Shown one piece after another: positions 10,094 to 25,126 of a DNA stretch of 64,000 nucleotides. A program made the position numbers and the translations under genes. Below the pieces are notes generated by a model. It searched no databases. It was not told the origin of the DNA and saw only the letters and a list, made by a program, of their open reading frames with translations. Location of the stretch: positions 5,146 to 69,145 of the IMG/VR virus record IMGVR_UViG_3300048586_000179, one strand, 5' to 3'. Position 1 is the first letter of the stretch; each line of letters opens with the position of its first letter. Source of the stretch: a virus.

Positions 10094-10712
10094 CCTCCAT
10101 TTCTTCGACCAGGCGCATGTCGAGCTTCATGAACTCGTCCATGGTGCCGGTCCAGAGGACCGCGCAGCCGTAGTAGATGGGGCGGTCGCCATTGGGGTAG
10201 CGTTCAGCCTTGCCCTTCTGCTCCTTGATCTCGGCAGGGGACAGGCGGGCGTGCTGCCACTGGGTATCCTCGCGGGTGTTGAAGCCGCGCAGGATGAGGA
10301 CCTGCTTCGCATCGAAGTCGAAGATGTAGCCCCATTCGCAGAACAGGCTGTCCTTGACGAACCGGGTATCTTCGGTGGCGATGCCGGCGTTGAGCCGCAG
10401 CATCAGGCTCCCCTGCTGCCCACGCAGCTGGGAATACCAGTCGTCTCCGGTGGAGACGCTGTCGTTCAGGAACTCGGCATAGGTCTTGGCCTGTTCCCGT
10501 GTGGGTTTTCCACCCGCGTCGACGTAGGTCATCTTCGCGACGAGAGGGGTGAGGTGGTCGAAGATGTCGTTGGGCTCAAGGCCCTCCGAGGTGATCTCCC
10601 CCATCTCCTTCTGCAGATCTTCGCCCGTCGAGGTGGGATAGGCGTCGAACTGCTGGTAACTGGCGTGCAGCACCCCGTCTTTCAGGGTGCCGATCACTCC
10701 TCTGGTTCCCAT
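10074..10712 (-). CDS. conserved phage early protein
   Basis: MGTRG...YQQFDAYP...DSLFCEWGYIFDFD. Confidence 0.75.
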   Translation of the reverse strand: MGTRGVIGTLKDGVLHASYQQFDAYPTSTGEDLQKEMGEITSEGLEPNDIFDHLTPLVAKMTYVDAGGKPTREQAKTYAEFLNDSVSTGDDWYSQLRGQQGSLMLRLNAGIATEDTRFVKDSLFCEWGYIFDFDAKQVLILRGFNTREDTQWQHARLSPAEIKEQKGKAERYPNGDRPIYYGCAVLWTGTMDEFMKLDMRLVEEMEVGDETA

Positions 10713-10785
10713 GATGTTTCTCCTTCTTGGGTGTCCGGTGGGGACCCCGGAAAAGAGACCCACCCCGAGGGGTGGGCTGGATCAG

Positions 10786-10983
10786 TTAAACCTTCTCTCG
10801 CCGTTTGAGCTTCAGAAGGTGGAACCCTAGCAGTCCTCCGTCTGTCCGGCTGTGCCAGATGCCACCGCACAAGCCACCTTTCAGGTCCTGTCGGGCCTCT
10901 TCGAGTGTCTTGGCGATCTTGCGCCTGGCAGCACGTTCATTGGGTGCATCGAATTCCATTTCTAGCCGGTATTTGGCTTTCAT
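10786..10983 (-). CDS. hypothetical early protein
   Basis: Cassette gene with RBS. Confidence 0.65.
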   Translation of the reverse strand: MKAKYRLEMEFDAPNERAARRKIAKTLEEARQDLKGGLCGGIWHSRTDGGLLGFHLLKLKRREKV

Positions 10984-11035
10984 CGCGTTCTCCTTTTCCT
11001 ATGGGGACCACGCAAAAGACCGCCCCGAAGGGCGG

Positions 11036-11374
11036 TCAGAGGTCCAGGTCCATTCGGCAGACCATCTGCACTGATGATGGCAGGCTGGACCACTTGGCCT
11101 GGAACTTCCGGTTTCGTTTCCGGAACTCCCGGACGTCACCGATCAGCATCTCCCTGGGCGCCCCCGGGCCGTTGTCACGGTCCCAGGGATCCTCGCCGCA
11201 GGACCGGTAGGCATAGAACTTGTTCTGCCAGGTCGTGCCGTAGAGGGGGTTGCGGTAGAAGATGGTGAAGCGGTTGGGGGTCTCGCCCCCGTTGTCATAC
11301 ATGGCCAGGATCCCACTCGGGCAGCCTCCATCCCGGTAGAGCGGGTGGCAGGGCTTCAGGGCGGGGCCGGTCAT
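11036..11374 (-). CDS. hypothetical protein, paralogue of 11371-11718
   Basis: YDNGGETPNRFTIFY. Confidence 0.7.
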   Translation of the reverse strand: MTGPALKPCHPLYRDGGCPSGILAMYDNGGETPNRFTIFYRNPLYGTTWQNKFYAYRSCGEDPWDRDNGPGAPREMLIGDVREFRKRNRKFQAKWSSLPSSVQMVCRMDLDL

Positions 11375-11718
11375 GTGCTGGCTCCCTTCAGGTCCTGCAG
11401 GACGCAAGCCCTGACCCTTTCGGGCAGGTCTGTCCACTTGCAGGCCCGATGGCGCTGGCTGTAACGGAAGCTTGCTGCCTGGTGGGCAAGAAGCTCCCCG
11501 TAGATCCCAACCCCTTGGGGATGGAACGGGTTTTCCGACATGTTCCGGTAGCCCAGATACATGTCGGTGTAGGTCGTCCCGGCGACCGGGTCAGCATAGA
11601 AGACCGTGTAACGGTCCGCTGTCTGGCCGCGGTTGTCGTAGATGGCCAGGACGCCTTTCGGGCAGTCCCCATCCAGCCATCGGCTGGACTGGCGGCGCGG
11701 CTTGTAGAGCCGGCTCAT
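11371..11718 (-). CDS. hypothetical protein, paralogue of 11036-11374
   Basis: YDNRGQTADRYTVFY. Confidence 0.7.
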   Translation of the reverse strand: MSRLYKPRRQSSRWLDGDCPKGVLAIYDNRGQTADRYTVFYADPVAGTTYTDMYLGYRNMSENPFHPQGVGIYGELLAHQAASFRYSQRHRACKWTDLPERVRACVLQDLKGAST

Positions 11719-11975
11719 GTCCTGTTCGCCTTTCGGCTCAGGTCTTCGACCAGAGCGTCCATGCGCGTCAGCGCCAGCGTGAGGGGGATCATGCTGTCGA
11801 GGTCGACCGCGCGGTTGCGCGGGTCGGTGTGCTGATAGTTCCGCCCGTGAAGGACATGGCTGTGCATGGTCTTCATGGCGTCGGCAAGACGGTCCCGCGC
11901 GATCTGCATGGCCATGGCGGCCGTGCCGAAATCGCGCTTCTCGTTGCCGTTCAGCTGGGGTTCTGCGTAGAGCAT
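11715..11975 (-). CDS. hypothetical early protein
   Basis: First gene of three-gene cassette. Confidence 0.7.
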   Translation of the reverse strand: MLYAEPQLNGNEKRDFGTAAMAMQIARDRLADAMKTMHSHVLHGRNYQHTDPRNRAVDLDSMIPLTLALTRMDALVEDLSRKANRT

Positions 11976-12043
11976 GGGTGTCTCCTTCGGTTGTTCCCCA
12001 TGGGGACCCCGGCAAAAAGCCGCCCCCGTAGGGGCGGCGGTCG

Positions 12044-12499
12044 TCACCAGCTGCTGTTGTACCAGACGGTCCAGCCGCGGGCGATCTCCTCCTTGGCGCG
12101 CTTGATGAAGGCGAGCGTGCGGGGCACGTCGCTCTCGTCGCTCTGCCCGAAGAAGAAGCCGGTGGTGTGCGGCAGCTCGTCGGCGAGCGTCTTGCGCTCC
12201 AACTCCTCGATGTCCTCGAGGTCGAGCACCACGTTGCCGTGGAAGCTGTCCATGGCGAACTGCGTCCCGCCCTTGCGGCGATAGATCTCCTCGATCGCGC
12301 CGTGCAGGTTCGGGTGCTTGCGGAAGTAGGCCACGGCCTTGTGGCCTGGCTTGCAGACGAAGAGGCTCCCGAAGATCTCGTCCTGCGTGAAACAGTCCGG
12401 GTAAGACGCGTCAGTGACGACGGCGGCCTCTCCGTAGCTGAAGTCGACCTTGGTTTCCGGGGCTTTCTCCGAAGCCCAGACGTATTGGTCCAATCCCAT
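12044..12499 (-). CDS. conserved phage protein (MGLDQY..YFRKHPNLHG family)
   Basis: MGLDQY, YFRKHPNLHG, LPHTTGFFFG, YNSSW end. Confidence 0.75.
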   Translation of the reverse strand: MGLDQYVWASEKAPETKVDFSYGEAAVVTDASYPDCFTQDEIFGSLFVCKPGHKAVAYFRKHPNLHGAIEEIYRRKGGTQFAMDSFHGNVVLDLEDIEELERKTLADELPHTTGFFFGQSDESDVPRTLAFIKRAKEEIARGWTVWYNSSW

Positions 12500-12576
12500 C
12501 GGGTATCTCCTTTGTTGGGGTGTTCCCATGGGGACCCCGCACGCCAGGACGGGCAAAAGACCGCCCCGAAGGGCGG

Positions 12577-13044
12577 TCAGAAGGGGCGCTGTCCCGCGCC
12601 CGTGTTGCCCACCTTGTCGCTGACCGTGCGGCCGTGATCGAACCCCATCGGGATCCGCTCGCCGGCGGGCAGCACCCAGATGTGGTACTGGTTGGCGGTG
12701 TCCACCAGCCGGTCCTCGGCCGGGTAGATCTCGAAGCCCTCCCGGCTCGGCCCTGCCACATCGTTCTTGATGCGCTGCAGGTCCCGCCAGTCATGGATGG
12801 GCTTGCGCGAGCGGAGCTTGATCGAGAGGTGGAGCCAGCCCAGCGGGCCGTCTCCGAGGTAGGTGACCGAGCACTGATAGGTGCTGTTGGTCCAGACCTC
12901 ATCGTCCTCCATCTGGCGCCGCACCTCCTCGCGGGTGGTGATGATGCCGTGCTCCTTCAGGGCGTGCTCGACATGCGCGTCCAGCTGGGCGTCGGTGATC
13001 GGGGTATAGGTGGTGCGGTACATGGTCTCCCATGTCTTGGGCAT
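12577..13044 (-). CDS. conserved phage protein
   Basis: HLSIK...WRDLQRIKN...EIYPAEDRLVDTANQYHIW; related to 316-669. Confidence 0.75.
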   Translation of the reverse strand: MPKTWETMYRTTYTPITDAQLDAHVEHALKEHGIITTREEVRRQMEDDEVWTNSTYQCSVTYLGDGPLGWLHLSIKLRSRKPIHDWRDLQRIKNDVAGPSREGFEIYPAEDRLVDTANQYHIWVLPAGERIPMGFDHGRTVSDKVGNTGAGQRPF

Positions 13045-13108
13045 GATGGTCTCCGTTCATGTGTCCCATGGGGACCCCGCAGGCGAAAAGAGAGGGCGCT
13101 TGCGCGCC

Positions 13109-13735
13109 CTACTCCCGCAGCCATTCCTGCGTGCAGGTCTCGCCAAGGGTGTAGATGCCGATGCGGCTCTCACCGTCATCGACCAGGGCATAGGAAGCGC
13201 CCTGCTCCATCGCGGCCGCCACGAACTCGATGTCGTCGAGCTCGCTTTCATGGGCGACCTGGATCATCCGGCCTTTCTCAAGGTTGTGGTTGATCTCCTT
13301 CCAGTCGATCCAGATGCCCAGCTCGTAGGCTGCGTCATCGTTCGGATCGCTCGAGGCCCAATCGTAGGTCATGAAGATCGGGGTTTCCTTGTCGAGCTGG
13401 TTCAAGAGCTCCGAGACGTAGCGATAGATCGCCAGGTTCTCGGCGTCATACTCTCCGTCCAGGACGTTCATCTCCTCCTCATCGTTGACGGGGAAGCTCA
13501 TGTCCAGGTGGCTCGACGTCTTCACATAGGCAAGCATTGCATCCGCGACGAGCAGCCATTCGGCGATGCTGTCGTAGTCGAAGCCGCTTTCGATGGCCTT
13601 GTCGTGGACGAATTGCATGTCCATGCGAATGGCGTCGAGGATCGCGCTGGGCCGCCGCTCGCCGTTGCCATTGAGGCGCAGGCCGGGCGGCAGTGCATCG
13701 AGATCGTCGTAGTCGTACTGGGGTCCATCATACAT
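13109..13735 (-). CDS. highly acidic early protein
   Basis: About 46 D/E vs 13 K/R in 208 aa (manual count). Confidence 0.75.
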   Translation of the reverse strand: MYDGPQYDYDDLDALPPGLRLNGNGERRPSAILDAIRMDMQFVHDKAIESGFDYDSIAEWLLVADAMLAYVKTSSHLDMSFPVNDEEEMNVLDGEYDAENLAIYRYVSELLNQLDKETPIFMTYDWASSDPNDDAAYELGIWIDWKEINHNLEKGRMIQVAHESELDDIEFVAAAMEQGASYALVDDGESRIGIYTLGETCTQEWLRE

Positions 13736-13813
13736 GTTGGTCTCCCTTGCTGATGGTGGTTCCTATGGGGACCCCGGCAAACAGGGTTGGCAAAAGGCCG
13801 CCCCGAAGGGCGG

Positions 13814-14071
13814 TCAGATGGGCTTTCCTGTCTTGCCGTCGATGAGGATCAGCTCGATGTCGAGGGCCGCGAGGATCGCGAAGAGGGTCTCGCCGCGGGG
13901 CCATTTCGTGCGGTTCGACCGGATCGCGTAGATGCATGCGACGGACACGCCACAGACCTCGGCGAGGTCGGTAGGGTGCCAGTGATACATCTTCAATCTC
14001 AGGTCGTTCATCACGGCTTCGGGCAGGCGGTAGCCTTGCTTCGTCTTCCTCAGGGCGATCACATTGGTCAT
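13814..14071 (-). CDS. XRE-like HTH regulator
   Basis: DLAEVCGVSVACIYAI...PRGETLFAILAAL. Confidence 0.75.
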   Translation of the reverse strand: MTNVIALRKTKQGYRLPEAVMNDLRLKMYHWHPTDLAEVCGVSVACIYAIRSNRTKWPRGETLFAILAALDIELILIDGKTGKPI

Positions 14072-14161
14072 GTCAGTCGGTCCTTTCAGGTTGTCCTATG
14101 GGGACCCCGGCAAACGGGCGAAAAGCCCACCCCCGAAGGGGTGGTCAGTTGGGGCAGTGGC

Positions 14162-14449
14162 TTACCGTCGGTTGTTGTTCTGCTGGTTCGAGTTCTGTTG
14201 CTGGCCCTGCTGCGGCAGCTGCCGGACGTTGTCCGTCTGGCCATTCTGCGCCTGTCCGCGGCGTTGATAATCCTCGCGGTTGATGATCAGCTGGAGGCAG
14301 GCCATCGCAAGGTAGAAGTCTTCCTTCTTGCGGGCATGCAGCAGCGTGGTCATCGCCTGCTGGATCAGCTTCTCCGTGGACATGTGCTGAATGTCGTCCA
14401 TATGCGGCCGGCGGCGGCCGAACATGAGCCAGAAAATCAATCGAAACAT
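14162..14449 (-). CDS. hypothetical protein with Q/N-rich tail
   Basis: Cassette gene; DIQHMST motif shared with 16674-16862. Confidence 0.7.
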   Translation of the reverse strand: MFRLIFWLMFGRRRPHMDDIQHMSTEKLIQQAMTTLLHARKKEDFYLAMACLQLIINREDYQRRGQAQNGQTDNVRQLPQQGQQQNSNQQNNNRR

Positions 14450-14525
14450 GGTCGTCTCCTCTGGGGCGTCTTGCTCCTATGGGGACCACGGCAAAATGCC
14501 CCGCCCGAAGGCGAGGCGAGGTGGG

Positions 14526-14843
14526 TCAGACCGGATCTGCAGTCATCAGATGCTTGGCGACAGCCCGGCGCAGGGTGGCAATCAGGCTCACCAGGCCCCC
14601 GTTCCAATGCATGGCCTCCACAGGTTGCTCCGGCGCCTTGAACACGAGAACGGGCTCGGCTCCCTGGTCCATCAGCTCGCCCTGCGCGCGGTGCAGCGGG
14701 GTCGTCTGTTCGACAGGGAGCACGCGCTCCCATTCTCGGGCAGGCGGCAGTGCATTGTGGCGGGCGACATAGTCGTCGAGGTCTTGGTGAGGCAGGATCA
14801 GCACCAGCCGGCGCTCTTCGTGCCAGAAGAATTTCGTTGTCAT
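14526..14843 (-). CDS. hypothetical early protein
   Basis: ATG after AGGAGA. Confidence 0.7.
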   Translation of the reverse strand: MTTKFFWHEERRLVLILPHQDLDDYVARHNALPPAREWERVLPVEQTTPLHRAQGELMDQGAEPVLVFKAPEQPVEAMHWNGGLVSLIATLRRAVAKHLMTADPV

Positions 14844-14913
14844 GCGGGTCTCCTTCTGTTCCCTATGGGGACCACGGGAAACGCCCACCCCCGAAGGGAT
14901 GGGCCCAGAAAGC

Positions 14914-15111
14914 TCAGGCCGAACGAACCCGGAAGGCTTTGGCGAGAGTGGTGTTCTCCTGCCGAAGGTCGTTGAGTTCACGGTCTTTGTTCCTCAGCCG
15001 CTCCTGAAGGGTGGCTTCGGCTGCGACGGCTTTCTTGACGTCGCGGTAAAGCGCGTTTTCACGCGCTGTCCAAGGTTTCTCGCTCAAGGCGATCTCCTCG
15101 TGGGGCATCAT
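14914..15111 (-). CDS. small coiled-coil protein
   Basis: Cassette gene; true start may be TTG at 15087 after GAGGAG. Confidence 0.6.
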   Translation of the reverse strand: MMPHEEIALSEKPWTARENALYRDVKKAVAAEATLQERLRNKDRELNDLRQENTTLAKAFRVRSA

Positions 15112-15243
15112 GATGGCCCGGCGCAGCCCCTGGCTGCCGGGTCAGAAGGGCCGCAATGGCTCTCCGATGGGGACCACGAATGTTTCACGGCGAACATTGA
15201 GGGCACTTGGGAAAAGCCCCCGCCCAGGGGCGGGGGTCGGGTT

Positions 15244-15600
15244 TCAGAGGCAGAGCGCAATGATGCGCGCTTCCAGTTCCTCGCGCGCTGCCTTGGCGGG
15301 CAGGGCGGCGAGGCGGGGCTTGTTGGCCTCGAGCCAGAAGTTGATCTCGTAGGTGGCTCCGACATAGTCGTCGACCAGATCCCAGCCACCGAGCTGACGG
15401 ATCGCGGTCTCGTTCCGGCGTGACCGGATCTCGGTCTGGCGCTGGGTGAGCTGCATGTCCATCTTGGTGGCGGCCGGGTTGGCCGGGTGATGATGCACGG
15501 AGTGGTCCTCGAGGACCATCTCGCAGGCTGCGAAGTCGTATTGTCCCGCCTCGGCGGCCCCGGCAAGGGCAACGAGCGCGGCAATAAGCGTGGTCTTCAT
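15244..15600 (-). CDS. exported protein with signal peptide
   Basis: MKTTLIAALVALAGAAEA Sec-type signal. Confidence 0.7.
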   Translation of the reverse strand: MKTTLIAALVALAGAAEAGQYDFAACEMVLEDHSVHHHPANPAATKMDMQLTQRQTEIRSRRNETAIRQLGGWDLVDDYVGATYEINFWLEANKPRLAALPAKAAREELEARIIALCL

Positions 15601-15672
15601 GGGGGTCTCCTCTTGGTTGTTCCCTATGGGGACCCCGAAAAGGCCACCCCGTAGCGGCGGGGTGGCTCAATC

Positions 15673-16083
15673 CTAGTGTCCGTGCTTGGTGTCGGTACGC
15701 TGCACGACAGCCCAAAGGTTGACGGGGTCGATGATCGTCACCTCCCAGATGAAGGGGCTTGGCTCACTCGACAGGACCTTGGATCTGGGTTTGGCCTCAT
15801 CGGTCTTGCCCGCGACCACGATACTGTCCTGGTGCACCACGAAGACCTGGTCGCCGACACTGATGTGCTGGGCGATGGTGGACTTCTGCAGGTGCACGAG
15901 GGCGGACTTGCGGTCACGGGCAAGGCGATGATCCATGACGCTCAGGACCAAAACCTTGTGGTGAGACATGGCGTGCCATTGTCTCTGGGTAATGACGTCG
16001 ACGCCCAGCTCCCTGAAGGATGCTGCGCGACCGCGGTTGCGGTAGACGTTCGGATTGCTATCCGTATGGTGTTCATAGGGCAT
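15673..16083 (-). CDS. hypothetical early protein
   Basis: ATG after AAGGA. Confidence 0.65.
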   Translation of the reverse strand: MPYEHHTDSNPNVYRNRGRAASFRELGVDVITQRQWHAMSHHKVLVLSVMDHRLARDRKSALVHLQKSTIAQHISVGDQVFVVHQDSIVVAGKTDEAKPRSKVLSSEPSPFIWEVTIIDPVNLWAVVQRTDTKHGH

Positions 16084-16190
16084 TTGTGATCCTTTCTCGA
16101 TACGATGCCTGGAAGCCACACCATGCGGCTTCCCATGGGGACCACGCTAATCCCGGTAAGCGAAAAGACCGCCCCCGGAGGGGCGGTGGA

Positions 16191-16592
16191 TCAGCCCGGC
16201 TTGTAGAGGCCGGACTTCTCGAGCACGTCGCGCAGGACCGCGTTGGCCTCGTAGAAGTCGAGACGGTAGCAGCCGGCGGGTGCCCCGGGCTTGTCCGCCC
16301 AGAGGCGGCGCATCCCGTGCCTGTCGATCGACTTGGTGGCGAGGCGAAGGCGGATTTCGCGCTTCATCTTCTCGACCACCGCATTGTCGTCGGTGTCCAG
16401 GCGGAAGTGCATCGGCTTCTTCCACCCATCCTGGGGCAGAAGGTCGGCGTGCTCCTTGCACAGCCGCTCGATGCGGGCAGGGCCTTCCTTGCGGCCGCGG
16501 CAGAACTCGATGTAGGCGATCGGCTTGCGATCCCAGTATCGGGTCCCTTCCGCGACGCCGTCGTGAAAAGCCAGATATGCATAGTAGGTCAT
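16191..16592 (-). CDS. hypothetical early protein
   Basis: Cassette gene. Confidence 0.7.
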   Translation of the reverse strand: MTYYAYLAFHDGVAEGTRYWDRKPIAYIEFCRGRKEGPARIERLCKEHADLLPQDGWKKPMHFRLDTDDNAVVEKMKREIRLRLATKSIDRHGMRRLWADKPGAPAGCYRLDFYEANAVLRDVLEKSGLYKPG

Positions 16593-16673
16593 GATCTGGG
16601 GTCCTTTCGTGGTTGTTCCCTATGGGGACCACGGCAAAGGCAAATGGACCGGACCCGAAGGCCCGGCCAGGAG

Positions 16674-16862
16674 TTACCGATGCGGCGTGCGCGCTTTCTG
16701 CCGATGCCGGTCCTGGATCAACTCCAGGATCTCGGCTACCTCGTCGATGCCATCCAGGCCTCTTCCGGACCTGAGGATCGCAGCCGCCCGTTGTCGCAAG
16801 TCCGCAGTTGAGAGATGCTGAATATCCTGCATCTCAGGTTGGCGGATGTAGCTCGTGAGCAT
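16674..16862 (-). CDS. hypothetical early protein
   Basis: Cassette gene with AGGAGA. Confidence 0.65.
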   Translation of the reverse strand: MLTSYIRQPEMQDIQHLSTADLRQRAAAILRSGRGLDGIDEVAEILELIQDRHRQKARTPHR

Positions 16863-16911
16863 GTGCTCTCCTTCCTCGCGCTTGGGGTTACTCCCGATGG
16901 GGACCCCGCGG

Positions 16912-17099
16912 AAAAAAGAACCTTCTCACGCTCTCTCCCATCCGTGCGAACGGGTGGGGCTTCACGCTGACATTCCATCAACTGCGCGGCTTCCACCGAC
17001 CTTCTCCAGAGCCTGTCACGGCCCGATCTCTGTCGGCTTTCACTGCTTCCCTCGCATGCTTGACAGCGGGTGCAGTTGAGAACGGATGTCTCGTTCTCC
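16912..17099 (-). ncRNA. putative structured ncRNA (cassette without ORF)
   Basis: Between motif 17103 and U6 tract; stems GAGAACG/CGTTCTC, AACTGC/GCAGTT, CCGAC/GTCGG, CCGT-TCGC-ACGG; no RBS-linked ORF. Confidence 0.55.
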
Positions 17100-17168
17100 T
17101 ATGGGGACCACACAAGATTGCGAAAAGAGACCCACCCCTTTCAGGGCGGGTCGGGCGCTCTCGGCCGG

Positions 17169-17291
17169 TCACTCGGCGACGGCGGCGGTCCAGCTAGCCT
17201 GCAGGTAGGGCAGGGTGTCGCGCTGGAACCTCTCGCTTGTCACATGGAGGTATCCGGTGAAGAGAATGGCCGCGATGTATATCCATTTCAT
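17169..17291 (-). CDS. small membrane/secreted peptide
   Basis: 40 aa MKWIYIAAILFTGYL..., AGGAGA RBS. Confidence 0.65.
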   Translation of the reverse strand: MKWIYIAAILFTGYLHVTSERFQRDTLPYLQASWTAAVAE

Positions 17292-17328
17292 GGCAGGTCT
17301 CCTTTTCCCATGGGGACCACACGAGGCG

Positions 17329-17475
17329 AAAAAACGATGCCTTGCGGCATGTCCCCAGCCTGGATCCTCCATTCACCGTCGCCCTGGCGAACCAGGGATC
17401 AGGCGTCTTTCAGACCTGCCCCTTGCGGGGCTACCAAGCGATGCCTTTCAGCATGCTGGGCGAGGCCGTTATTCC
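17329..17475 (-). ncRNA. putative structured ncRNA with GNRA/UUCG tetraloops
   Basis: Outer stem CCCAGC/GCTGGG enclosing GAAA, GCAA and TTCG-capped hairpins, then terminator ATGCC-GCAA-GGCAT and U6. Confidence 0.7.
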
Positions 17476-17501
17476 TATGGGGACCACGGATTATCGGGGC
17501 G

Positions 17502-17775
17502 AAAAAATGCTGCCCTTGGGCGGCATCGACTGCTTTGTTGGTTTTACCGCACCGGTAGAGGCCGGCGCCGTCCAGCATCAGGACGATCGCAGTCTTGGCG
17601 TATCACCCCACGCCCGTGGGTCTCAATCCCCACCCTGACCATTCTTGAGTTCATGGTCGGGTGGGCCGTCTGGCAATCACTCTTCGGGAATGTCATTCGC
17701 GTCTTTTGCCAAACGGGAAACTTGCGTGAAGCAAGTCCCTCTGCGACTTTGTGCCGCCGCAGATTTCTGCATTCC
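17502..17775 (-). ncRNA. putative ~270-nt multi-hairpin ncRNA
   Basis: At least 6 stems followed by terminator; no RBS-linked ORF on the minus strand. Confidence 0.65.
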
Positions 17776-17990
17776 TATGGGGACCACGGATTATTCCGGC
17801 GGCCCGACTTCTCCCGGGCCAGGTCAATGATCCACTCGGACACCCACCCCTCGTCCAGCTGCATCTGCTCGTAGACCATCAAACCCACGATGTAGTCCTG
17901 CTGGAACTGCGTCAGCCCAAGGCCAGGCAGCGCCTGCCTGACCGTCTCCAACGCCTCCTCGAGCGTGGGGATCAGCGCATCACTCGCCAC
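17775..17990 (-). CDS. hypothetical protein
   Basis: GTG start overlapping upstream gene; TAG stop lies within the first array motif. Confidence 0.5.
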   Translation of the reverse strand: MASDALIPTLEEALETVRQALPGLGLTQFQQDYIVGLMVYEQMQLDEGWVSEWIIDLAREKSGRRNNPWSP

Positions 17991-18135
17991 GATCCGGTTC
18001 CCACAGGCGACCCGTGAAATCCCGGTCGCCCAGCTGCATGCGCGTCCCGTCCGCACCCAGCCCCATCTCCTCGAGGAATTCCTCCTCATCATCCTGGAAA
18101 TCGTCGTCCTCCAGGTCGTCATCCTTGGGTGGCAT
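17980..18135 (-). CDS. small very acidic protein
   Basis: MPPKDDDLEDDDFQDDEEEFLEE; GGAGA RBS. Confidence 0.6.
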   Translation of the reverse strand: MPPKDDDLEDDDFQDDEEEFLEEMGLGADGTRMQLGDRDFTGRLWEPDRGE

Positions 18136-18308
18136 GGTGGTTCTCCTTGACAAGGTTTCCGCTCGACCCCCTCGACAAGCGAAACGCGGCGAAGCATAGT
18201 GCCCTTGCGCCCTGTCGAGGGGGCGCAAGGGTAGTCTAGCAATCATGGAGAGTTGGATGCAAGGACCGGGAAGTCCCTTGACCAAGATGCTGTGCATGGC
18301 ACCAGATC

Positions 18309-19241
18309 ATGCCTCAAGATAGCGGCGCAGCATCACAGACGCAAGACACTATTGTCAATGTTGCCTTGCGATTGGCTGATAACGGGGTGCCTGTCTTCCC
18401 CGTCAGCACGAAGAAGACACCCGTCTGGGAGAAAGGCGAAAGCCCGAACGGAAGGGACGGGCTGCATGCGGCGACGACCGATCCCGACGAGGTCGAAGCC
18501 CTCTTTGCCCACCCCCGCACCGCAGGGATCGGCATGCCCACCGGCAAGATCAGTCGGGTCACCGTCATCGATGTGGACTGCGGACGTGGCAAGCCCCACC
18601 GGGATGCCGCGATGGAATGGCTCGATGGCGCGCGCAAGAGCGCGCTCTGGGGCGCGACCGTGGTCCGGACAGGGTCGGGTGGCCTCCATTACTACATGCG
18701 CTACAGGGAGGGCCTGAAGACCGGGGCCAATGTCTGGGCGATGGGGGTCGATTGCCGCAATGATGGGGGCTACGTGGTCGTGCCGCCCTTCATGGGGTAT
18801 CGGTACGAGCGCCAGACGGACCCCGATGACTGGCCCGCAGTGCCTGAGCCGCCGGCCTCCCGCGTCAAGCGCACGATCGTCGACCAGAAGGATGGCCGCT
18901 GCCCACCCGAGATCATGGCCATGCGCGACCTGATCGAGGGCAAGGTCACATGGCACGACCCGGTGCGGGACATCATCGCGCACCTGGTGGGGTCAGGGTG
19001 GTCGGATGCCGAGATCCTGCGCTTCACCTTCCAGTGGACCTGGCCGGGCTACAACCCGGCTGAGACCTTCGAGCAGATCTGCGTCATGCTGAATGGCGCG
19101 CGGGAGAAGTGGACCAAGAGCCAGAAGCCCGAAACCCTGACCGACCTGCGTCTCGACAGGTTCGTGATGCTCTGGGATCGGTGCAGCACCGCCGAAAAAT
19201 TGGAAATCATCAAGATGATCAAAGAGGTAGCACCCGAATGA
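18309..19241 (+). CDS. bifunctional primase/polymerase (Prim-Pol, AEP)
   Basis: VFPV..KKTP, VIDVD, VRTGSGGLHYY, DCRNDGGYVVVPP. Confidence 0.9.
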   Translation: MPQDSGAASQTQDTIVNVALRLADNGVPVFPVSTKKTPVWEKGESPNGRDGLHAATTDPDEVEALFAHPRTAGIGMPTGKISRVTVIDVDCGRGKPHRDAAMEWLDGARKSALWGATVVRTGSGGLHYYMRYREGLKTGANVWAMGVDCRNDGGYVVVPPFMGYRYERQTDPDDWPAVPEPPASRVKRTIVDQKDGRCPPEIMAMRDLIEGKVTWHDPVRDIIAHLVGSGWSDAEILRFTFQWTWPGYNPAETFEQICVMLNGAREKWTKSQKPETLTDLRLDRFVMLWDRCSTAEKLEIIKMIKEVAPE

Positions 19242-20815
19242 CGGACGAGATCACACCGCCCGCAACCCCCGTCCGTCGTCTTTCCCGCGTGATGATCCCC
19301 CCGGAAGAACAAGCCCGGCTCCTTGCCGAGCAGGCGGAGGACGCCGGGACCGATCCACTTCAGACCCGCATGGGGTGGAGCTTCGCGCAGAACTACCACG
19401 AGCGCTTTTGCTTCGATCATGGGCTTGAGCAATGGATGGTCTGGAACGGTAGTATCTGGACCGTCGACACCTCCGGCCTTCCCCTCTACGAGATGATGCA
19501 GTTCGGGGATCGGCTGATCCGTGTTCACCCCACAGCGCGACGGCAACTGAGCAGCGTGGGCTTCTGCCGTGGCGCTCTGGAAGCGGCAGCCCACGACAGA
19601 CGCATGGCGCGGGCGCATGACGAGTTCGACAATGCCCCGAGCATCATCGCCACTCCCAAGGGTTACATCGACCTGGAGACTGGTGAGGTGAGGCAGCCAG
19701 ATCGATCCCTGAATATCACCAGGTCGACAGCGATCAGTCCGGAGCCGGGGCCATGCCCGATGTGGATGAACTTCCTCGCAGCCGTCCATAAGGGGCAGGA
19801 AGAGATCATCGACTGGCTGCAGAAGCTCTGCGGCGAGGCCCTGCTCGGCCGGCAGACCGACCACCACTTCGTGTTCTTCTACGGCGATGGCGGCAATGGC
19901 AAGTCGCAGTTCCTCGAAACCCTGTCAGGCATCATGGGAGACTACGCCGCGCAGGCTCAGGCCGGCACGTTTACCCAGCCAGAGGGGCGTAGCTTCGGAG
20001 GGCAGCATGAGCACGTCCTGGCCATGCTGGAAGGCGCCCGGCTGGTGCTGGTGTCCGAGCCGGGGGATGGCGAACAGTGGAACATGGGGCGGGTGAAGCA
20101 ATGGACCGGCGGCGGCATGATCACCGCCGACCTCAAGTACAAGGCGGCCCAGACCTTCAGGCCCGCAGGACTGCTCGTGCTGGAGAGCAACAAGGCCCTC
20201 AAGGTCGAGGTGGTCAACAATGCGGTGGCAAGGCGGCTGCGCTACGTGGTCTGGCCGCACAAGTTTGCCGGCACCGGATACGAGCACCTGAAGATCGATG
20301 ACCTCGCCCTGAAGATGCTGGCCGAGGAAGGGCCGCAGATCTTCTCCTGGATGATCGAAGGTGCACAGAGGGTCTTGCGAGAGGGCCTGCGAACCACCCC
20401 CGAGATCGAAAGGACCAGCGCCAGCTACCTCAAGGAACAGGATGTCGATCAGCGCTTCATCGAGGATTGCCTCGAAGTCGATGAACACGTCCAGCCCGGC
20501 GTCGATCTGCAGGATGCTGTCACCGTCTACAACGAATGGGCACGGAACACGGAAGCCCCGGCGCGCAAGAACATCGGAACCCGGCTGGTCAGCAAGGGAC
20601 TGGAAGTCTCCAAGAGCCACCCCCGACGCTACATCCGCAAGCACAGCCTGTCAGCGAATGGCATGGCCTACATGAGCGCCGCCCTCATGCGGAGGATCAG
20701 GAGCAAGGAACTGACGAAGGCCGACGCTGAGCGTTGGCGCAAGACCCTGCTCGAATGGGACCTGAAGGGGGATGATGGAGCCTACGTGAATGATCTACTT
20801 GGGGTTGTTAGTTAA
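19238..20815 (+). CDS. D5/P4-family SF3 primase-associated helicase
   Basis: D5-N region, FFYGDGGNGKS Walker A, VKQWTGGG, ARRL. Confidence 0.9.
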   Translation: MTDEITPPATPVRRLSRVMIPPEEQARLLAEQAEDAGTDPLQTRMGWSFAQNYHERFCFDHGLEQWMVWNGSIWTVDTSGLPLYEMMQFGDRLIRVHPTARRQLSSVGFCRGALEAAAHDRRMARAHDEFDNAPSIIATPKGYIDLETGEVRQPDRSLNITRSTAISPEPGPCPMWMNFLAAVHKGQEEIIDWLQKLCGEALLGRQTDHHFVFFYGDGGNGKSQFLETLSGIMGDYAAQAQAGTFTQPEGRSFGGQHEHVLAMLEGARLVLVSEPGDGEQWNMGRVKQWTGGGMITADLKYKAAQTFRPAGLLVLESNKALKVEVVNNAVARRLRYVVWPHKFAGTGYEHLKIDDLALKMLAEEGPQIFSWMIEGAQRVLREGLRTTPEIERTSASYLKEQDVDQRFIEDCLEVDEHVQPGVDLQDAVTVYNEWARNTEAPARKNIGTRLVSKGLEVSKSHPRRYIRKHSLSANGMAYMSAALMRRIRSKELTKADAERWRKTLLEWDLKGDDGAYVNDLLGVVS

Positions 20816-20861
20816 GACGGTGAAGGGGTCAGTATCAACCGGTGGTTGCCTTTCAGAAGAA

Positions 20862-20967
20862 GAAGTCCCAAAATTTTGGGACTTCACCTATAAGTTCGCT
20901 CCACGCGCGCTTGCGCGCCCGCGCGGGATAGGGCAAAGTTATGTGGCAAGTCCCAAAATTTTGGGAC
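20862..20967. repeat. two perfect palindromes GTCCCAAAATTTTGGGAC (putative origin)
   Basis: 24-bp palindrome 20862-20885 and 18-bp copy 20950-20967 just after the helicase gene. Confidence 0.75.
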
Positions 20968-20983
20968 CCGAAAACGAGGGAGC

Positions 20984-21253
20984 ATGACCATGATGAAGCT
21001 GTTCAAGGACGACGCCGACATTGCCGACATCGACAAAGCCATCGAAACCATGAAGGAGGTCGAGCGGCTGCTGACCTCGATCATCGTGCGAGGTGATGAC
21101 TGGATGAAGGCCGTGCCCGTGCGAGCGTCTACCGCCGACAGGCTGAACGCGCACAAGAACCGCATCCTGAAGATGAGGATGGACATGCAGGAAGATGGCT
21201 TCCAGGTCCGGAGGGCGCGTCGCCTGCCACCTCCGCCGGACGGCTACAGCTGA
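20984..21253 (+). CDS. hypothetical protein
   Basis: 89 aa, GAGGGAG RBS. Confidence 0.65.
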   Translation: MTMMKLFKDDADIADIDKAIETMKEVERLLTSIIVRGDDWMKAVPVRASTADRLNAHKNRILKMRMDMQEDGFQVRRARRLPPPPDGYS

Positions 21254-21297
21254 CCGCGAAAAAAGGAGCGCCCGCATGATGCGGACGCCCTAGACCA

Positions 21298-21474
21298 TCA
21301 GTTCGTTTCGCGCTTATAGCGTTTGAACCAGTTCACCGAGGTCCGCTGCAGGGTCAGCTTCCTGCCCACATACATGGACAATCCAATGAGCCCCGCGAGT
21401 GCGGTGACGGTGATCACGGTCGGCGCGCTGATTGTCAGCGATGCGTTGGTGATGGCGGCAAGCGTGTGTTCCAT
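21298..21474 (-). CDS. small membrane protein (leftward cassette)
   Basis: 58 aa with TM helix; motif at 21517 upstream, hairpin+U-tract downstream. Confidence 0.65.
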   Translation of the reverse strand: MEHTLAAITNASLTISAPTVITVTALAGLIGLSMYVGRKLTLQRTSVNWFKRYKRETN

Positions 21475-21516
21475 AGGGAACGCTCCTCTTTTGTCGAAAG
21501 CAGGATTGCTTCCTAT

Positions 21517-21644
21517 GGGGACCACGCAACCCATTGAAAAAGCTAATGATTGGTAAAACATATTCGTGGCCGCAGCGCGGCGCAGCCGCGCGCCGCCTCA
21601 TCAGCTTGCGTGATTAGTGTAAACTGTCGCGGCATGTGGTCCCC
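21517..21644. promoter_or_regulatory. divergent pair of the cassette promoter motif with operator copy 2
   Basis: Leftward core 21517-21525, rightward GTGGTCCCC 21636-21644, 24-bp element 21603-21626 between. Confidence 0.8.
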
Positions 21645-21673
21645 ATAGGAAACAACACCTTAGGAGACTGAAC

Positions 21674-21802
21674 ATGAAAGACCTTCTGATCGAATGCATT
21701 TCCGACACGATGACCCTCGCGATCATCGGTGGCATCTACATCGCGTCCGCAGCCGGACCGTGTGGAACCATCGATCGGTGGCTGGGCTTCTGCGGGATCT
21801 GA
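21674..21802 (+). CDS. small membrane peptide (rightward cassette)
   Basis: 42 aa MKDLLIECISDTMTLAIIGGIYIA..., AGGAGA RBS; below ORF-track cutoff. Confidence 0.65.
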   Translation: MKDLLIECISDTMTLAIIGGIYIASAAGPCGTIDRWLGFCGI

Positions 21803-21840
21803 ACATCAGCACCTTCATCGAACCCTACCGTTCGACCAAG

Positions 21841-21870
21841 GCCACCGCCCGCAAGGGTGGTGGCTTTTTT
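21841..21870 (+). terminator. intrinsic terminator
   Basis: GCCACCGCCC-GCAA-GGGTGGTGGC-TTTTTT. Confidence 0.85.
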
Positions 21871-21939
21871 CGCAGGCCATTGCTATCGTGGCTGTGCACA
21901 GCTGAGAACGCACTCCACTGCGAACCGAAAGGAACTCCC

Positions 21940-22104
21940 ATGGCCAAGAGCACGTCCCGCATGCCCGGCAAGCCTGTCCAGGCGCTGAGCCGTTCGCGCC
22001 TGCCGAAGTCGGCGCCTTCGCTGCCGATGAAGGGCACGCTGCCGGCGAACAAGCCCAACCGCAACCTGAGCCCGGCCAAGCCCAAGGCCAACACGCCGAG
22101 ATGA
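21940..22104 (+). CDS. small basic protein
   Basis: 54 aa K/R/P-rich, AAGGA RBS. Confidence 0.6.
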   Translation: MAKSTSRMPGKPVQALSRSRLPKSAPSLPMKGTLPANKPNRNLSPAKPKANTPR

Positions 22105-22277
22105 GCGCGATTTCGCGTCCAGCTGCTGCCTTCGGCCTCCGCATGGGCGTGACGCCCAAGGTCGGCAAGCAAATGAAGGCTGGCAAGTCCAGCCATGCGG
22201 GGGCTGGTCGCACCGTGGTGAAGGCGGGGCCTGCGGGGGCGGGCCGCGACTGCGTCAAGCCGAAGGGTGGCAAGTGA
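22101..22277 (+). CDS. small basic protein
   Basis: 58 aa K/G-rich, ATGA and GTGA overlaps on both sides. Confidence 0.55.
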   Translation: MSAISRPAAAFGLRMGVTPKVGKQMKAGKSSHAGAGRTVVKAGPAGAGRDCVKPKGGK

Positions 22278-22678
22278 ACGAAGCGTTCTTCTGGGGTCTG
22301 ATCCGTCATCGCATGCCGCCTGGGTGGTTCACCCGGCGGATCGAGGACGCGAGCGGCAACCTCGGGACCTTCGACACGTTCCTCGCGCATCGCGACTGGG
22401 GTCAGGCATGGCTTGAGCTCAAGGTCGCGGGGCCCGATGCCAAGCCCGAGCTTCGGAAGGGGCAGCCCGCCTTTGGTCGCGGGCTTTACGATGCGGGTGT
22501 GCCGGCCGGATACCTGGTTGGCAGCCCGAACGGCAAGGTGAGGCTGCTCGGGCCGCTGACCCTCGGGGATGACTGGCGCGACCACCTGGTCGAGGACTGG
22601 CGCTACCTCGATGTGCCTGCAGTCTTGACCGCGCTCTTTCGCCCGAGGAATGTCGTTCCACTTCGCAAGCTGGGGTGA
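22274..22678 (+). CDS. VRR-NUC/Holliday-junction resolvase-like PD-(D/E)XK nuclease
   Basis: RIE...GTFD...WLELK. Confidence 0.7.
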   Translation: MNEAFFWGLIRHRMPPGWFTRRIEDASGNLGTFDTFLAHRDWGQAWLELKVAGPDAKPELRKGQPAFGRGLYDAGVPAGYLVGSPNGKVRLLGPLTLGDDWRDHLVEDWRYLDVPAVLTALFRPRNVVPLRKLG

Positions 22679-22683
22679 GACAG

Positions 22684-23250
22684 ATGGCCAATGCCAAGCC
22701 AGCGAAATCATGGAGTGGGCCGGACGGCCCCAACCCTCCACCCAAGAGCCCTGGTCGCCCGCGTGGTCGGACGGACGTACCGGGCAAGACGATGCGGGTG
22801 AACAAGAAGCTCGACGAGATGCTGGGCCAGGCGCACAAGAACGTGGCCAAGGCGCTGCAGAAGGGTGACGTGCCCACGAGCCGGTGGATCATCGAGCACC
22901 TGCGTGACGAGGATGGCAAGAGGATCCCGAAGGGCGTCCTGGCTCCGCTTGTCCAGGCTCTCGACACGCTCGAGGATGTGGCGCAGGTCTCCAAGCGCGT
23001 GCTGCTGTTGGCGATCGAGGGTGACATGACCTTCGACCAGCTGAAGTTCGTCCAGGAGGCGCTGGCCCGACACTCTGTGCTGGCTGGCGTGGTCGAGTTG
23101 CGCAAGCTGCGCGACGAGGTGGAGGCGATGGCGCGCGCTAACGACCTCAAGCCTTCGGTGCTTGGCCGCGATCACCTTCCGTCCTGGGGTCGGCTTGCCA
23201 AGGACGTGACGCCCACGCATGATGCGGCCCAGAAGCTCCCAGCGGAGTAG
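22684..23250 (+). CDS. putative terminase small subunit
   Basis: N-terminal PGRPRG then helical domain (ALQKGD). Confidence 0.55.
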   Translation: MANAKPAKSWSGPDGPNPPPKSPGRPRGRTDVPGKTMRVNKKLDEMLGQAHKNVAKALQKGDVPTSRWIIEHLRDEDGKRIPKGVLAPLVQALDTLEDVAQVSKRVLLLAIEGDMTFDQLKFVQEALARHSVLAGVVELRKLRDEVEAMARANDLKPSVLGRDHLPSWGRLAKDVTPTHDAAQKLPAE

Positions 23251-23255
23251 GTCGG

Positions 23256-24815
23256 ATGAAGATCGCTTGCCCGCCCGGGTATCGCACCGACATGCCACCG
23301 GTCGCGCCTGAGCCGTTCTGGTTCTACGGTGAGAATATCCGCTTCCGGATGGGTATTCCCGAGACCATCGGCCTGTTCACCAAGGCCTACAGCCTGCTAT
23401 CTGGCGAGATCATCGCCTTCCCCGGCATCGAGAGGACGGCAACGCTCTACGGCGACGCGAACTTCCTGGTGCTCGGTGCGAGTGACAGGCTTGAGGTCCT
23501 GCGCTGGGAGACGGGCGAGCGCGCCACGATCATGACCCCGGAGGTCGGCGACACGGGGCGCTGGTGGTTCGCCGCGACTGAGCAGGAGATCATCTGCGGT
23601 CGATCGAACCTCACAGGCAAGACCTATGCGGTCAAGCGCTCGGACCTCAGCACTGCTGTCCTGCCGAATGCGCCCACTGGCGGCATGGGTGGCGGGATCG
23701 TGGCCGGGATCCTGGTCAAGGCTGGCACCGTGGGCGTGGCGGGTGATGGTCCGCGCATGGTGGTGCGCTGGTCGGCGCGGCAGACGGACCCATCGTCGTC
23801 AGGCACGCCCGCTGGTCCGTTCGGCTTCGAGGACTGGACGCCCAGCGATGTGAACGCATCGGGTGAGTTCCTGCTCGACGAGGGCAGTGAGATCAGGGGT
23901 GGTGGGTCGACGCAGTTCGGCTTCATGGTGTGGACCGACACCCGGGCCATCCTCCTCGCGCCGCGCAACGACCTCTACGTCTTCACCAAGTCGACGATTT
24001 CCCTGCGCGGCCTCCTGACCTCGCACTCCTGGACCGAGAGCGATGGTCGGCTTTGGTGGTTCGATCAGACGCGGACGTTGAACTTCTTCGACGGCGGTGG
24101 TGCGCGTCAGGTTCTCAACCCGATGCGACATGTCTCGACCGAGATCATTCGCGACCAGGACATCAGCCTGTGCTTCATGTCCTCTGACGCGGAGAATGGG
24201 GAGGTCACCCTGCACTATCCGGACCGCAACGGCTTCTTCCGTGAGCTGGTCTACAACTACATGGAGGACGCCTGGTACGCCTTCGCGCTGAACCGCATCT
24301 CGATGACGGACGCGCATGGCGACCGTCCGACAGTCGGCATCGACGCCTCCGGGCAGGTCTACTTCTACGACATTCGTGAAGCACTGCTACCCCAGATCAC
24401 CGTGCCGATTGCGACCTTCTCATTGCCACCGCCTTCGTTGCCCGATCCACAGGCGGGCGGCCTTGGAGATCCAGAGCCCTTCTCGTTCTTCTTGATGACG
24501 AACTGGATCGCCCCACCCAACGCCGCCCTTGAGAGCCACCGGTCCCGCAACGTGGTGGTCTCGCACACCCTGTCCAACGTTCCCGATGTCCCGGCGACGG
24601 CTGACGAGCTGCAACTCACGGTGCAGAGCTATGGAAAGCTGGACCTCTACGAGACGCCCGAGGTCGACTTCGACAAGCGCCCGGTGGGCAAGATGCTGCG
24701 GGAGCTGAGGGCTGGCGGGAAGATGCTGCAGTTCATCCTGTCGGCCTCTAGCATTCGTACTCACCTGCGATTTGCACCCATGGATGTGGATGCTGACGGC
24801 TCCGGCAAGCGGTGA
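23256..24815 (+). CDS. tail tubular B/nozzle-like virion protein
   Basis: Beta-rich; VRWS...DWTP...SGEF.L..GSEI motif of podovirus tail proteins. Confidence 0.6.
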   Translation: MKIACPPGYRTDMPPVAPEPFWFYGENIRFRMGIPETIGLFTKAYSLLSGEIIAFPGIERTATLYGDANFLVLGASDRLEVLRWETGERATIMTPEVGDTGRWWFAATEQEIICGRSNLTGKTYAVKRSDLSTAVLPNAPTGGMGGGIVAGILVKAGTVGVAGDGPRMVVRWSARQTDPSSSGTPAGPFGFEDWTPSDVNASGEFLLDEGSEIRGGGSTQFGFMVWTDTRAILLAPRNDLYVFTKSTISLRGLLTSHSWTESDGRLWWFDQTRTLNFFDGGGARQVLNPMRHVSTEIIRDQDISLCFMSSDAENGEVTLHYPDRNGFFRELVYNYMEDAWYAFALNRISMTDAHGDRPTVGIDASGQVYFYDIREALLPQITVPIATFSLPPPSLPDPQAGGLGDPEPFSFFLMTNWIAPPNAALESHRSRNVVVSHTLSNVPDVPATADELQLTVQSYGKLDLYETPEVDFDKRPVGKMLRELRAGGKMLQFILSASSIRTHLRFAPMDVDADGSGKR

Positions 24816-24865
24816 TATGCTCGCCGCATCCCATGGCCAGACGGCCGAACCAAAAGGAGGGATAG

Positions 24866-25126
24866 ATGGCAACCAGAACGACGACCACGACCACGGCGCC
24901 CCCACCCGCCGAGACGCAAGAGGGGCTTCCGTCGACCGAGCCCACCACGACCGAAGGTGGTGATGCGCCAGTAGAGCCCGAGACCCCCGAGATCGAGCTT
25001 TCCGCCTACGACAAGGCGGTGGCATTCAAGCCTGATCCGTGGGATCAGCTGCCCGAGGATCCCGAGGTGAGAGCGATTTACCTGGGCATCAACGGCCACA
25101 TCAACTTCTTCAAGCGGAGGGCCTGA
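24866..25126 (+). CDS. hypothetical protein
   Basis: AGGAGG RBS, T/P/E-rich. Confidence 0.65.
   Translation: MATRTTTTTTAPPPAETQEGLPSTEPTTTEGGDAPVEPETPEIELSAYDKAVAFKPDPWDQLPEDPEVRAIYLGINGHINFFKRRA

Follow-up and report, generated by a model that had tools for sequence, protein, structure and literature searches.

What does phage DNA encode where a promoter-like motif, a run of stable hairpins and a terminator stand together with no recognizable gene between them? The question is raised by a segment of ~147 nucleotides (nt), here called unit B, on the minus strand of the IMG/VR virus record IMGVR_UViG_3300048586_000179. We analysed positions 5146-69145 of this 69,145-bp record, which has direct terminal repeats and is rated complete; these 64,000 nt are referred to as the window, and the window's own numbering is used throughout. 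With confidence that is about evenly balanced, we read unit B as a self-contained gene for a small noncoding RNA of ~147 nt that would act in trans as a binder. The conservation of its stems by matching mutations, and with it the interpretation as a noncoding RNA, is well supported by comparison with related phages.

A first-pass annotation of the window had described a compact multibranched RNA with stable tetraloops and a terminator at this locus, and all the hairpins, tetraloops and the terminator that it listed are present on the minus strand at 17475-17329. By analogy with T7-type promoters, transcription is predicted to start at 17475, and it would end at 17329 where a terminator is called. 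Positions within the unit are numbered from i1 at 17475 along the minus strand, and its parts are as follows:

17494-17473, minus strand: putative promoter, with the core GTGGTCCCCATAGGA at 17487-17473 and ATAATCC before it
17475-17329, minus strand: predicted transcript of ~147 nt, beginning at the first G of GGAAT and ending with the U run
17460-17455, minus strand: CCCAGC (i16-21), 5' strand of the closing helix proposed in the first-pass annotation
17359-17354, minus strand: GCUGGG (i117-122), 3' strand of the same helix
17454-17441, minus strand: hairpin H1, AUGCU-GAAA-GGCAU (i22-35)
17431-17418, minus strand: hairpin H2, GCCCC-GCAA-GGGGC (i45-58)
17417-17401, minus strand: hairpin H3, stem i59-62/i72-75 with a 9-nt loop, CUGAAAGAC
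17397-17382, minus strand: hairpin H4, CCCUGG-UUCG-CCAGGG (i79-94), UUCG-capped
17381-17360, minus strand: purine-rich segment CGACGGUGAAUGGAGGAUCCAG (i95-116), containing GGAGGA, which resembles a ribosome-binding site (RBS)
17351-17329, minus strand: intrinsic terminator CAUGCC-GCAA-GGCAUCG followed by U6 (17334-17329)
17320-17306, minus strand: putative promoter of the following unit, bordering unit B on its downstream side

The promoter, which has a T7-like layout, would start transcription at ~17475, and the GCAA-capped hairpin with its U6 would stop it at 17329; a terminator scan called an intrinsic terminator here with a stem at 17350-17337, a GCAA loop and the tail CGTTTTTT. Unit B has the layout of a stand-alone small RNA, with a promoter motif at 17487-17473 (its activity predicted from position, after terminators and ahead of an RBS and ATG), a terminator and no RBS-led open reading frame (ORF). 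The combination of motif and terminator with no RBS or ATG in the leader supports an RNA gene.

The stronger evidence comes from relatives. A search with the purine-segment pattern located unit B in a 23.2-kb IMG/VR fragment (L104, from G001) at L104:2715-2862. This contig carries the same promoter eight times, and a second promoter-pattern locus (L114) belongs to the same record. Contigs of further relatives were available from two runs, X3 and X4, of one freshwater study; their differences from the window were read by hand from a partial list that says nothing on H1, the closing helix or the terminator. Over 156 alignment columns, the RNA of unit B alone shows 89% identity between its window and L104 versions, which are separated by 15 substitutions and one real 1-base indel; blastn identity in coding DNA is 67-82%, a difference that supports the conservation of B. 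For B together with its promoters the same blastn comparison gives 86.6%, and for a second conserved unit (unit C, described below) 84%.

The structure proposed in the first-pass annotation was fixed before any relative was known and pairs 41% of the columns. Eleven of the 15 substitutions nevertheless fall in paired columns (binomial P 0.012), and seven of the eight pairs touched remain standard in L104, three of them through changes on both sides, so that the expectation of stem conservation in homologs was borne out. When H3 is refined to the stem i59-62/i72-75, 13 of the 15 substitutions are in paired columns (P 0.0004) and 9/10 touched pairs are retained, and sliding the 3' partners by 1-3 columns reduces pairing from 98% to 28-44%. 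G.U pairs, several of which are among those retained, can form on the minus-strand transcript only. Compensatory changes of the kind expected of a selected RNA structure are therefore present in the two full sequences, with partial support from the X3 and X4 contigs. It is this comparison with relatives, and not folding energy, that lifts the observation above chance.

The individual helices illustrate the pattern. In H1 of L104, a U.G pair has become C-G and the loop GAAA has become GCAA, retaining the GNRA form. H2 changes a C-G to a U.G in L104, and in both the X3 and X4 contigs its 5' strand is longer by one base and its 3' strand by two, consistent with one extra U-A pair and a bulge. H3 has three one-sided changes in L104 with all pairs retained, and at its pair A59-U75 the X3 contig has G.U and the X4 contig G-C. 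The first-pass annotation had drawn this third element, CAGGTCTGAAAGACGCCTG at 17418-17400, with one G used twice; the element is there, and the 4-bp stem i59-62/i72-75 is favored because the relatives fit it. A 3-bp mini-hairpin, GUC/GAC, was rejected, two of its three pairs breaking in the X4 contig. H4 reads CCUGGC-UUCG-GCCGGG in L104 with 6/6 pairs retained, two via changes on both sides, and in the X4 contig its pair U82-A91 has become A-U while the loop is no longer UUCG. The terminator is identical in L104.

The closing of the molecule is ambiguous. The helix CCCAGC/GCUGGG of the first-pass annotation is present, and in L104 its pair A19-U119 has become G-C while the terminal pair C16-G122 is lost. 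At least one other long-range pairing fits the data as well. In the alternative scheme i8-13 pair with i115-120, including GGCCU (i9-13) with AGGCU (i115-119), and H1 is lengthened; all of its pairs are retained in L104 through one-sided changes only, and the two changes that convert A19-U119 to G-C fit it as well. The two schemes fit L104 equally well, with energies of -42.6 and -38.8 kcal/mol (window and L104) for the former and -51.4 and -48.3 kcal/mol for the latter, ~9 kcal/mol better. We predict a fold of four local hairpins, H1-H4, and a long-range helix between i8-21 and i115-122.

The purine-rich segment between H4 and the closing helix does not differ between the window and L104. Among the differences listed for the contigs, X3 has one change here, and X4 has the same change together with a deletion of one base. 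The segment is predicted to be single-stranded. Minimum free energy (MFE) folds, at -64.3 kcal/mol for the window and -63.7 kcal/mol for L104, instead pair the segment with the H3/H4 region, differently in each phage. The MFE helix i72-80/i109-118 breaks in the X4 contig at C75.A115, and the MFE pairing i84-90/i99-105 was set aside with two of its seven pairs broken in L104. A GNRA-tetraloop receptor, sought by eye, was likewise discarded, as the candidate bases and the GAAA loop both change in L104.

The same comparison argues against a coding role. No ORF with an RBS and a high GC content at third codon positions (GC3) is present in 17329-17475. Two frames of 59 and 67 amino acids in the ORF list span terminators and promoters; one begins in the neighboring unit A, which the relatives lack, and the start of the other (ATG at 17372) is destroyed by the 1-base deletion in the X4 contig. 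With no RBS or ORF, with single-base indels, and with substitutions that track pairs and not codons, the sequence comparison upholds the view of a structured noncoding RNA unit with its own promoter and terminator. A micro-peptide gene or, as the first-pass annotation had suggested, a self-cleaving ribozyme receives almost no credence from us. The compact multi-helix fold with stable tetraloops would suit a ribozyme, and short ATG frames exist for a peptide, one of 7 codons within H1 and one of 19 codons starting inside the terminator. Neither frame has an RBS at a workable distance; the 19-codon frame is only 10 codons long in L104 and crosses the terminator and the next promoter, and the 7-codon frame changes non-synonymously in L104 (L to P and K to Q). 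These last changes turn U.G to C-G and GAAA to GCAA, and therefore fit pairs and not a peptide. As for a ribozyme, no model of a ribozyme, the hammerhead, twister, HDV-like, pistol and hatchet families included, or of any other Rfam family matched unit B, even at E<=10.

Tetraloops alone are a poor guide to the nature of unit B. The first-pass annotation had taken them as a mark of selected RNA structure, which by themselves they are not in this phage: GNRA and UNCG hairpins of the same kind also cap the ordinary terminators of this phage, and being common to these they are not diagnostic alone. Moreover, H1 (17441-17455) matches the terminator hairpin of unit B (17335-17351) at 15/17 nt in the window and 17/17 nt in L104, and this sequence is absent elsewhere in the window genome and the L104 contig. 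The match fits birth by terminator duplication and does not decide between readings. One of these holds that unit B is a functionless remnant, a gene unit emptied by recombination between repeated promoters and terminators, with GGAGGA, the ATG in the terminator and the duplicated hairpins left over. The purine segment does resemble the RBS consensus of the phage, AAGGAGAC, with an ATG 14 nt after it, and units appear to be gained and lost at promoter repeats. A remnant would not be expected to be better conserved than the coding DNA around it, to have its substitutions concentrated in stems and compensated, or to be retained in two full genomes and the X3 and X4 contigs while the adjoining units are swapped, and the structured leader of 95 nt is unlike the 10-25 nt leaders of the real genes of the phage. 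We regard this explanation as improbable.

Unit B is embedded in an array of similar units. The motif GTGGTCCCCATRGGA occurs 21 times at <=2 mismatches as compared with 0.38 expected, a count reached by 0/100 shuffles, and a regular expression found 25 sites genome-wide, all within 4663-21650 of the window (9808-26795 of the genome). The consensus is C-G-K-GGTCCCCA-Y-N-GG-R-A. Twenty-four of these are on the minus strand (4663-21525) and one is a divergent plus-strand site at 21636. A GC hairpin with a T-run terminator precedes each minus-strand site, so that almost every small gene of the array would form its own transcription unit, and AAGGAGA plus an ATG follow within 10-25 nt of most of them. 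From these positions, and from the only polymerase domain found, the motif is probably the promoter of the phage, with a T7-like layout and a start at GG. The domain belongs to a large protein:

31094-39379, plus strand: ORF of 2761 amino acids among structural genes, with a T7-type RNA polymerase domain (PF00940, residues 1448-1767) and an LPD38 domain (residues 2435-2596)

No further polymerase was found among the nine large and 10 mid-size ORFs scanned, the other ORFs lying outside that scan, and the promoter of unit B would probably be read by this T7-like domain. With the domain placed among virion genes, the suggestion in the first-pass annotation that the RNA is made at the start of infection is a conjecture. 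T7-type transcription units combine a short promoter, ending in an A/T-rich tetramer followed by G's, with a class I terminator of GC hairpin and U run. The array resembles them in its short conserved promoter with an A/T-rich tetramer before the initiating G's, in its GC-hairpin and U-run terminators and in the T7-like nature of the polymerase domain. It differs in that nearly each small gene has its own promoter and terminator, that some units lack an ORF, and that the polymerase domain is embedded in a 2761-amino acid protein among virion genes, with ~25% identity to the polymerases of cultured T7-like phages. The units around B are as follows:

18242-17775, minus strand: ORF of 155 amino acids without a terminator of its own, followed by unit A and then unit B
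17775-17488, minus strand: unit A, 300 nt from promoter to promoter, no RBS-led ORF, with the identical 24-nt string ATAATCCGTGGTCCCCATAGGAAT on both flanks
17291-17169, minus strand: hydrophobic ORF of 40 amino acids (MKWIYIAAILFTGYLH...) with a strong RBS, forming its own unit directly after unit B
17099-16908, minus strand (L104:3075-3266): unit C, ORF-poor and conserved in L104

The 24-nt string at 17494-17471, which includes the promoter of unit B, recurs exactly ahead of unit A at ~17794-17771, and appears to have been a point of exchange. In the window the order is 155-amino acid ORF, A, B, 40-amino acid ORF, C, while in L104 it is a homolog of the 155-amino acid ORF, a unit of ~80 nt without an ATG, B, a unit of 186 nt, and C. 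Unit A is thus replaced by a different ~80-nt unit, and the 40-amino acid ORF is absent at the corresponding place. Unit A is also skipped in the X3 and X4 contigs, which join 17469 to 17813. For an X4 contig of 1308 nt (record 28), the alignment is confined to 17329-17469, where 23 letters differ and 10 gaps occur; on the upstream side this contig continues at 17813, skipping unit A at the repeated 24-nt promoter string, and downstream of B it is unlike the window. Recombination at the promoter repeats seems to add and remove units, and unit B keeps its place in L104 and in the X3 and X4 contigs while its neighbors differ. A further X3/X4 joint, from 17085 to 17467, may skip the 40-amino acid ORF and is ambiguous owing to the promoter repeats.

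This arrangement also bears on the possibility that unit B is a cis-acting transcription element, a stack of hairpins heading the leftward array that would insulate, pause or modify the phage polymerase in an antitermination-like manner, or stabilize 3' ends. Its standing as second in the array after an ORF that lacks a terminator, the retention of this place in relatives, the duplication of the terminator hairpin as H1 and the terminator-style hairpins in general are all compatible with such a role. We nevertheless consider it unlikely, given that unit B has its own promoter and is directly followed by another, leaving the downstream genes independent of it, and that the units adjoining it differ between relatives. 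RNA-mediated antitermination is, to our knowledge, not described for single-subunit polymerases, which counts further against a cis element.

Alternatively, the hairpins might function in single-stranded DNA, for instance as a signal for priming or replication beside two nearby genes, with any RNA incidental. These genes are:

18309-19241, plus strand: Prim-Pol gene, inside the minus-strand array, ~0.9 kb from unit B
19238-20815, plus strand: primase-helicase gene, inside the minus-strand array, 1.8 kb from unit B

The strand-specific G.T pairs would fit single-stranded DNA of the same strand equally well. A DNA signal would not explain why the conserved block has exact promoter-to-terminator borders or why the conserved unit includes a U-run terminator, and no origin-typical repeat or AT-rich feature was seen in the stretch read. 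We give this possibility a very slim chance.

A small RNA acting in trans thus appears the likeliest product of unit B, since the unit is independent of its changing neighbors, has its own promoter and terminator, and displays a conserved segment between hairpins. We propose that the hairpins serve as a stable scaffold and that the purine-rich segment is the contact site, through which the RNA would work either as a riboregulator or sponge pairing with a pyrimidine-rich partner or as a decoy of a host protein. Several observations weigh against this. The energies are weak and, taken alone, little better than chance: the window's sequence of the unit folds at -67.6 kcal/mol with a z-score of -2.34 (4/200 shuffles as good) and the L104 homolog has a z-score of -1.43 (17/200). 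There are two full sequences only, a two-row alignment being out of reach of R-scape-grade statistics, and shuffles reached the observed values in 63/500 and 126/500 cases, making that control uninformative. At about -64 kcal/mol the MFE folds are more stable than the comparative model (-43 to -51 kcal/mol), and since they pair the purine segment it may not be free; the invariance of that segment alone is not significant (P ~0.1 for no change in 23 nt at 10% divergence). The evidence from X3 and X4 is drawn from a partial difference list, with 272 substitution and 21 indel rows outside it, probably those toward the ends of the aligned piece. The hairpins resemble the ordinary terminators of the phage and H1 copies that of unit B, which fits recombination debris too. 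Finally, no complementary phage site of >=13 nt was found outside other terminator hairpins, and 11-12-mers were at chance level.

No known family accounts for unit B. The first-pass annotation could assign none, and Rfam 15 agrees, no family reaching its gathering score anywhere in the window. When 16850-17850 was searched at E<=10, a single chance match was obtained, to a snoRNA model outside unit B (E 2.9), and none in B to ribozyme, tracrRNA, CRISPR repeat, C4, pRNA or ToxI models. ARAGORN found no tRNA or tmRNA genes in the window, and the loops of unit B are all of 4 nt except one of 9 nt, unlike a cloverleaf with its 7-nt loops. A sponge of the CsrB/RsmZ type, binding CsrA, was rejected because the four GGA in the 147 nt include none in a hairpin loop. 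With a generic anti-Shine-Dalgarno tail, the duplex energy of the purine segment did not stand out.

Other phage sequences are equally distant. A blastn search of 16500-18500 against 50,697 phage records gave no match, nor did the primase as a single query in IMG/VR. A primase alignment recovered 35 IMG/VR and 60 metagenome loci, the only close ones being L044 (99%) and L045 (54%), neither of which extends to unit B. Primase relatives at 50-62% identity (P0002-P0008) are also present on contigs of 61-68 kb in JGI and Logan. IMG/VR pattern scans with the promoter, purine segment, H1 and unit C core found only L104; 26 other stretches with the purine pattern were dismissed as chance (local alignment scores <=21), and 30 single-copy promoter-pattern loci in other records were also taken as chance matches. 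A search with model R1 found one copy of unit B per genome, with no paralog in the window genome or the L104 contig, and its best scores in 95 other loci (973,687 bases) were only E 0.17 and 0.51. Neither the purine segment nor H2 with its flank had an exact-pattern match in 185,579 species genomes. By sequence, unit B would form a new RNA family with two full members and contig-level variants, phage small RNAs as such being already known.

Small phage RNAs with a dedicated promoter and intrinsic terminator include lambda OOP and the P1 C4 and P4 CI immunity RNAs, which are structured and act by base pairing. Unit B shares their predicted promoter-to-terminator organization; theirs are antisense to, or pair with, neighboring phage transcripts, whereas the search for phage sites complementary to unit B found none of >=13 nt outside terminator hairpins. 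The pRNA of phi29 is a multi-helix noncoding RNA made from an early promoter in a protein-primed phage group, and its part in the packaging motor depends on pairing between loops of separate molecules. It is phage-encoded and of similar size to unit B, which has no Rfam match to it and no evident intermolecular loop pairing.

The nearest described case is that of the putative sRNA1-3 of the N4-like Pseudomonas phage LUZ7, reported from long-read RNA-seq in late infection at one intergenic hotspot (PMC9163698). Like unit B, these are short (<250 nt) noncoding transcripts with their own start and terminators in a lytic podophage with a virion RNA polymerase, as that paper describes them. They differ in having been observed by RNA-seq, whereas unit B is predicted, within a promoter-terminator array, and unit B shares no sequence with any record of the phage collection. 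Run X2, labelled RNA-Seq and flagged as probably DNA, covers a small share of the window and none of unit B, and is evidence neither way.

Phage RNAs can also act as decoys of host immune proteins, as outlined for viral single-guide RNAs (vsgRNA) and RNA anti-CRISPRs (Racr) in a preprint (bioRxiv 10.64898/2026.06.01.729453), and the first-pass annotation had offered a protein decoy or antitoxin mimic as options. Unit B would then copy a host immune RNA, as a guide-like RNA of the vsgRNA or tracrRNA kind, a CRISPR-repeat mimic (Racr) or an antitoxin-RNA mimic. Its alternative fold, with a free 5' end of ~14 nt, a bulged tetraloop-capped stem, hairpins and a terminator, recalls the vsgRNA layout given in the preprint (14-nt guide, lower stem, tail, terminator), and, like those compact accessory units, unit B moves whole. 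However, its 147 nt exceed the preprint's size cut-off of 120 nt, and membership needs similarity to a host repeat or tracrRNA, of which none was found by Rfam models of tracrRNA, CRISPR direct repeats, ToxI or other families at E<=10 or by the exact H2 scan. For a vsgRNA this similarity would be a repeat:anti-repeat stem and a tail homologous to those of a host type II system, and for a Racr near-identity to a host CRISPR repeat. That scan, the test for a Racr, used an exact 20-nt pattern, which inexact repeats escape. No anti-CRISPR protein was recognized nearby, no search having been aimed at them. We judge an immune-RNA decoy highly improbable.

A bolder version of trans action, which we put forward as speculative and decidedly unlikely, joins unit B with its conserved neighbor C in host takeover or anti-defence. 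The RNA would be made in bulk from a promoter read by the polymerase of the virion gene region, and its scaffold of ultra-stable hairpins would display the invariant RBS-like purine tract to trap a host factor, with the anti-Shine-Dalgarno end of the 30S subunit, an RNA-binding regulator and a guide-loading immune nuclease as candidates. If true, a phage lineage with its own transcription system would here be using RNA alone as a counter-measure. A role is known for few small RNAs of lytic phages, and model phages are the source of most. In this uncultured podophage lineage, whose polymerase is encoded among virion genes, an early region appears packed into about two dozen promoter-terminator units, of which at least two, B and C, are conserved, ORF-less and evolving like folded RNAs. 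If expressed, unit B would add a new RNA family and a compact case of phage gain from RNA instead of protein, and the exchange of whole units at repeated promoters is a route by which such RNAs could spread between phages.

Unit C is a second candidate RNA gene on sequence grounds. Its first ~125 nt are ~93% identical between the window and L104, and RNAalifold predicts a long-range helix, CAACUGC/GCAGUUG, with three pairs changed on both sides. Together with A (promoter at 17787), B (17487) and C (17111), perhaps one more unit lacks an early RBS. This unit, behind the promoter at 15177 (14876-15177, minus strand), has no RBS or ATG in its first 48 nt, and its only ORF (14914-15111, 65 amino acids) has no RBS and a borderline GC3, so it may be a fourth ORF-less unit. 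The ~80-nt mini-unit of L104 (L104:2621-2702) likewise lies between two promoters, has no ATG and ends in a hairpin followed by seven T residues. The 66-bp divergent gap between the 155-amino acid ORF and the Prim-Pol gene (18243-18308) contains no copy of the phage promoter motif.

The gene content of the genome is that of a phage, with ORF domain scans recognizing a portal, tail-fibre-like and other virion proteins, a helicase, a primase-helicase and a Prim-Pol. For the portal, identity is 24-28% to the proteins of podophages of Pelagibacter (HTVC023P-type), Roseobacter (CRP-901/902) and Caulobacter, and by such protein comparisons the cultured relatives of this phage are remote. The 2761-amino acid protein resembles a virion polymerase giant, shorter than the N4 counterpart and in a lineage far from N4; the virion polymerase of DEV is described as 3398 amino acids long.

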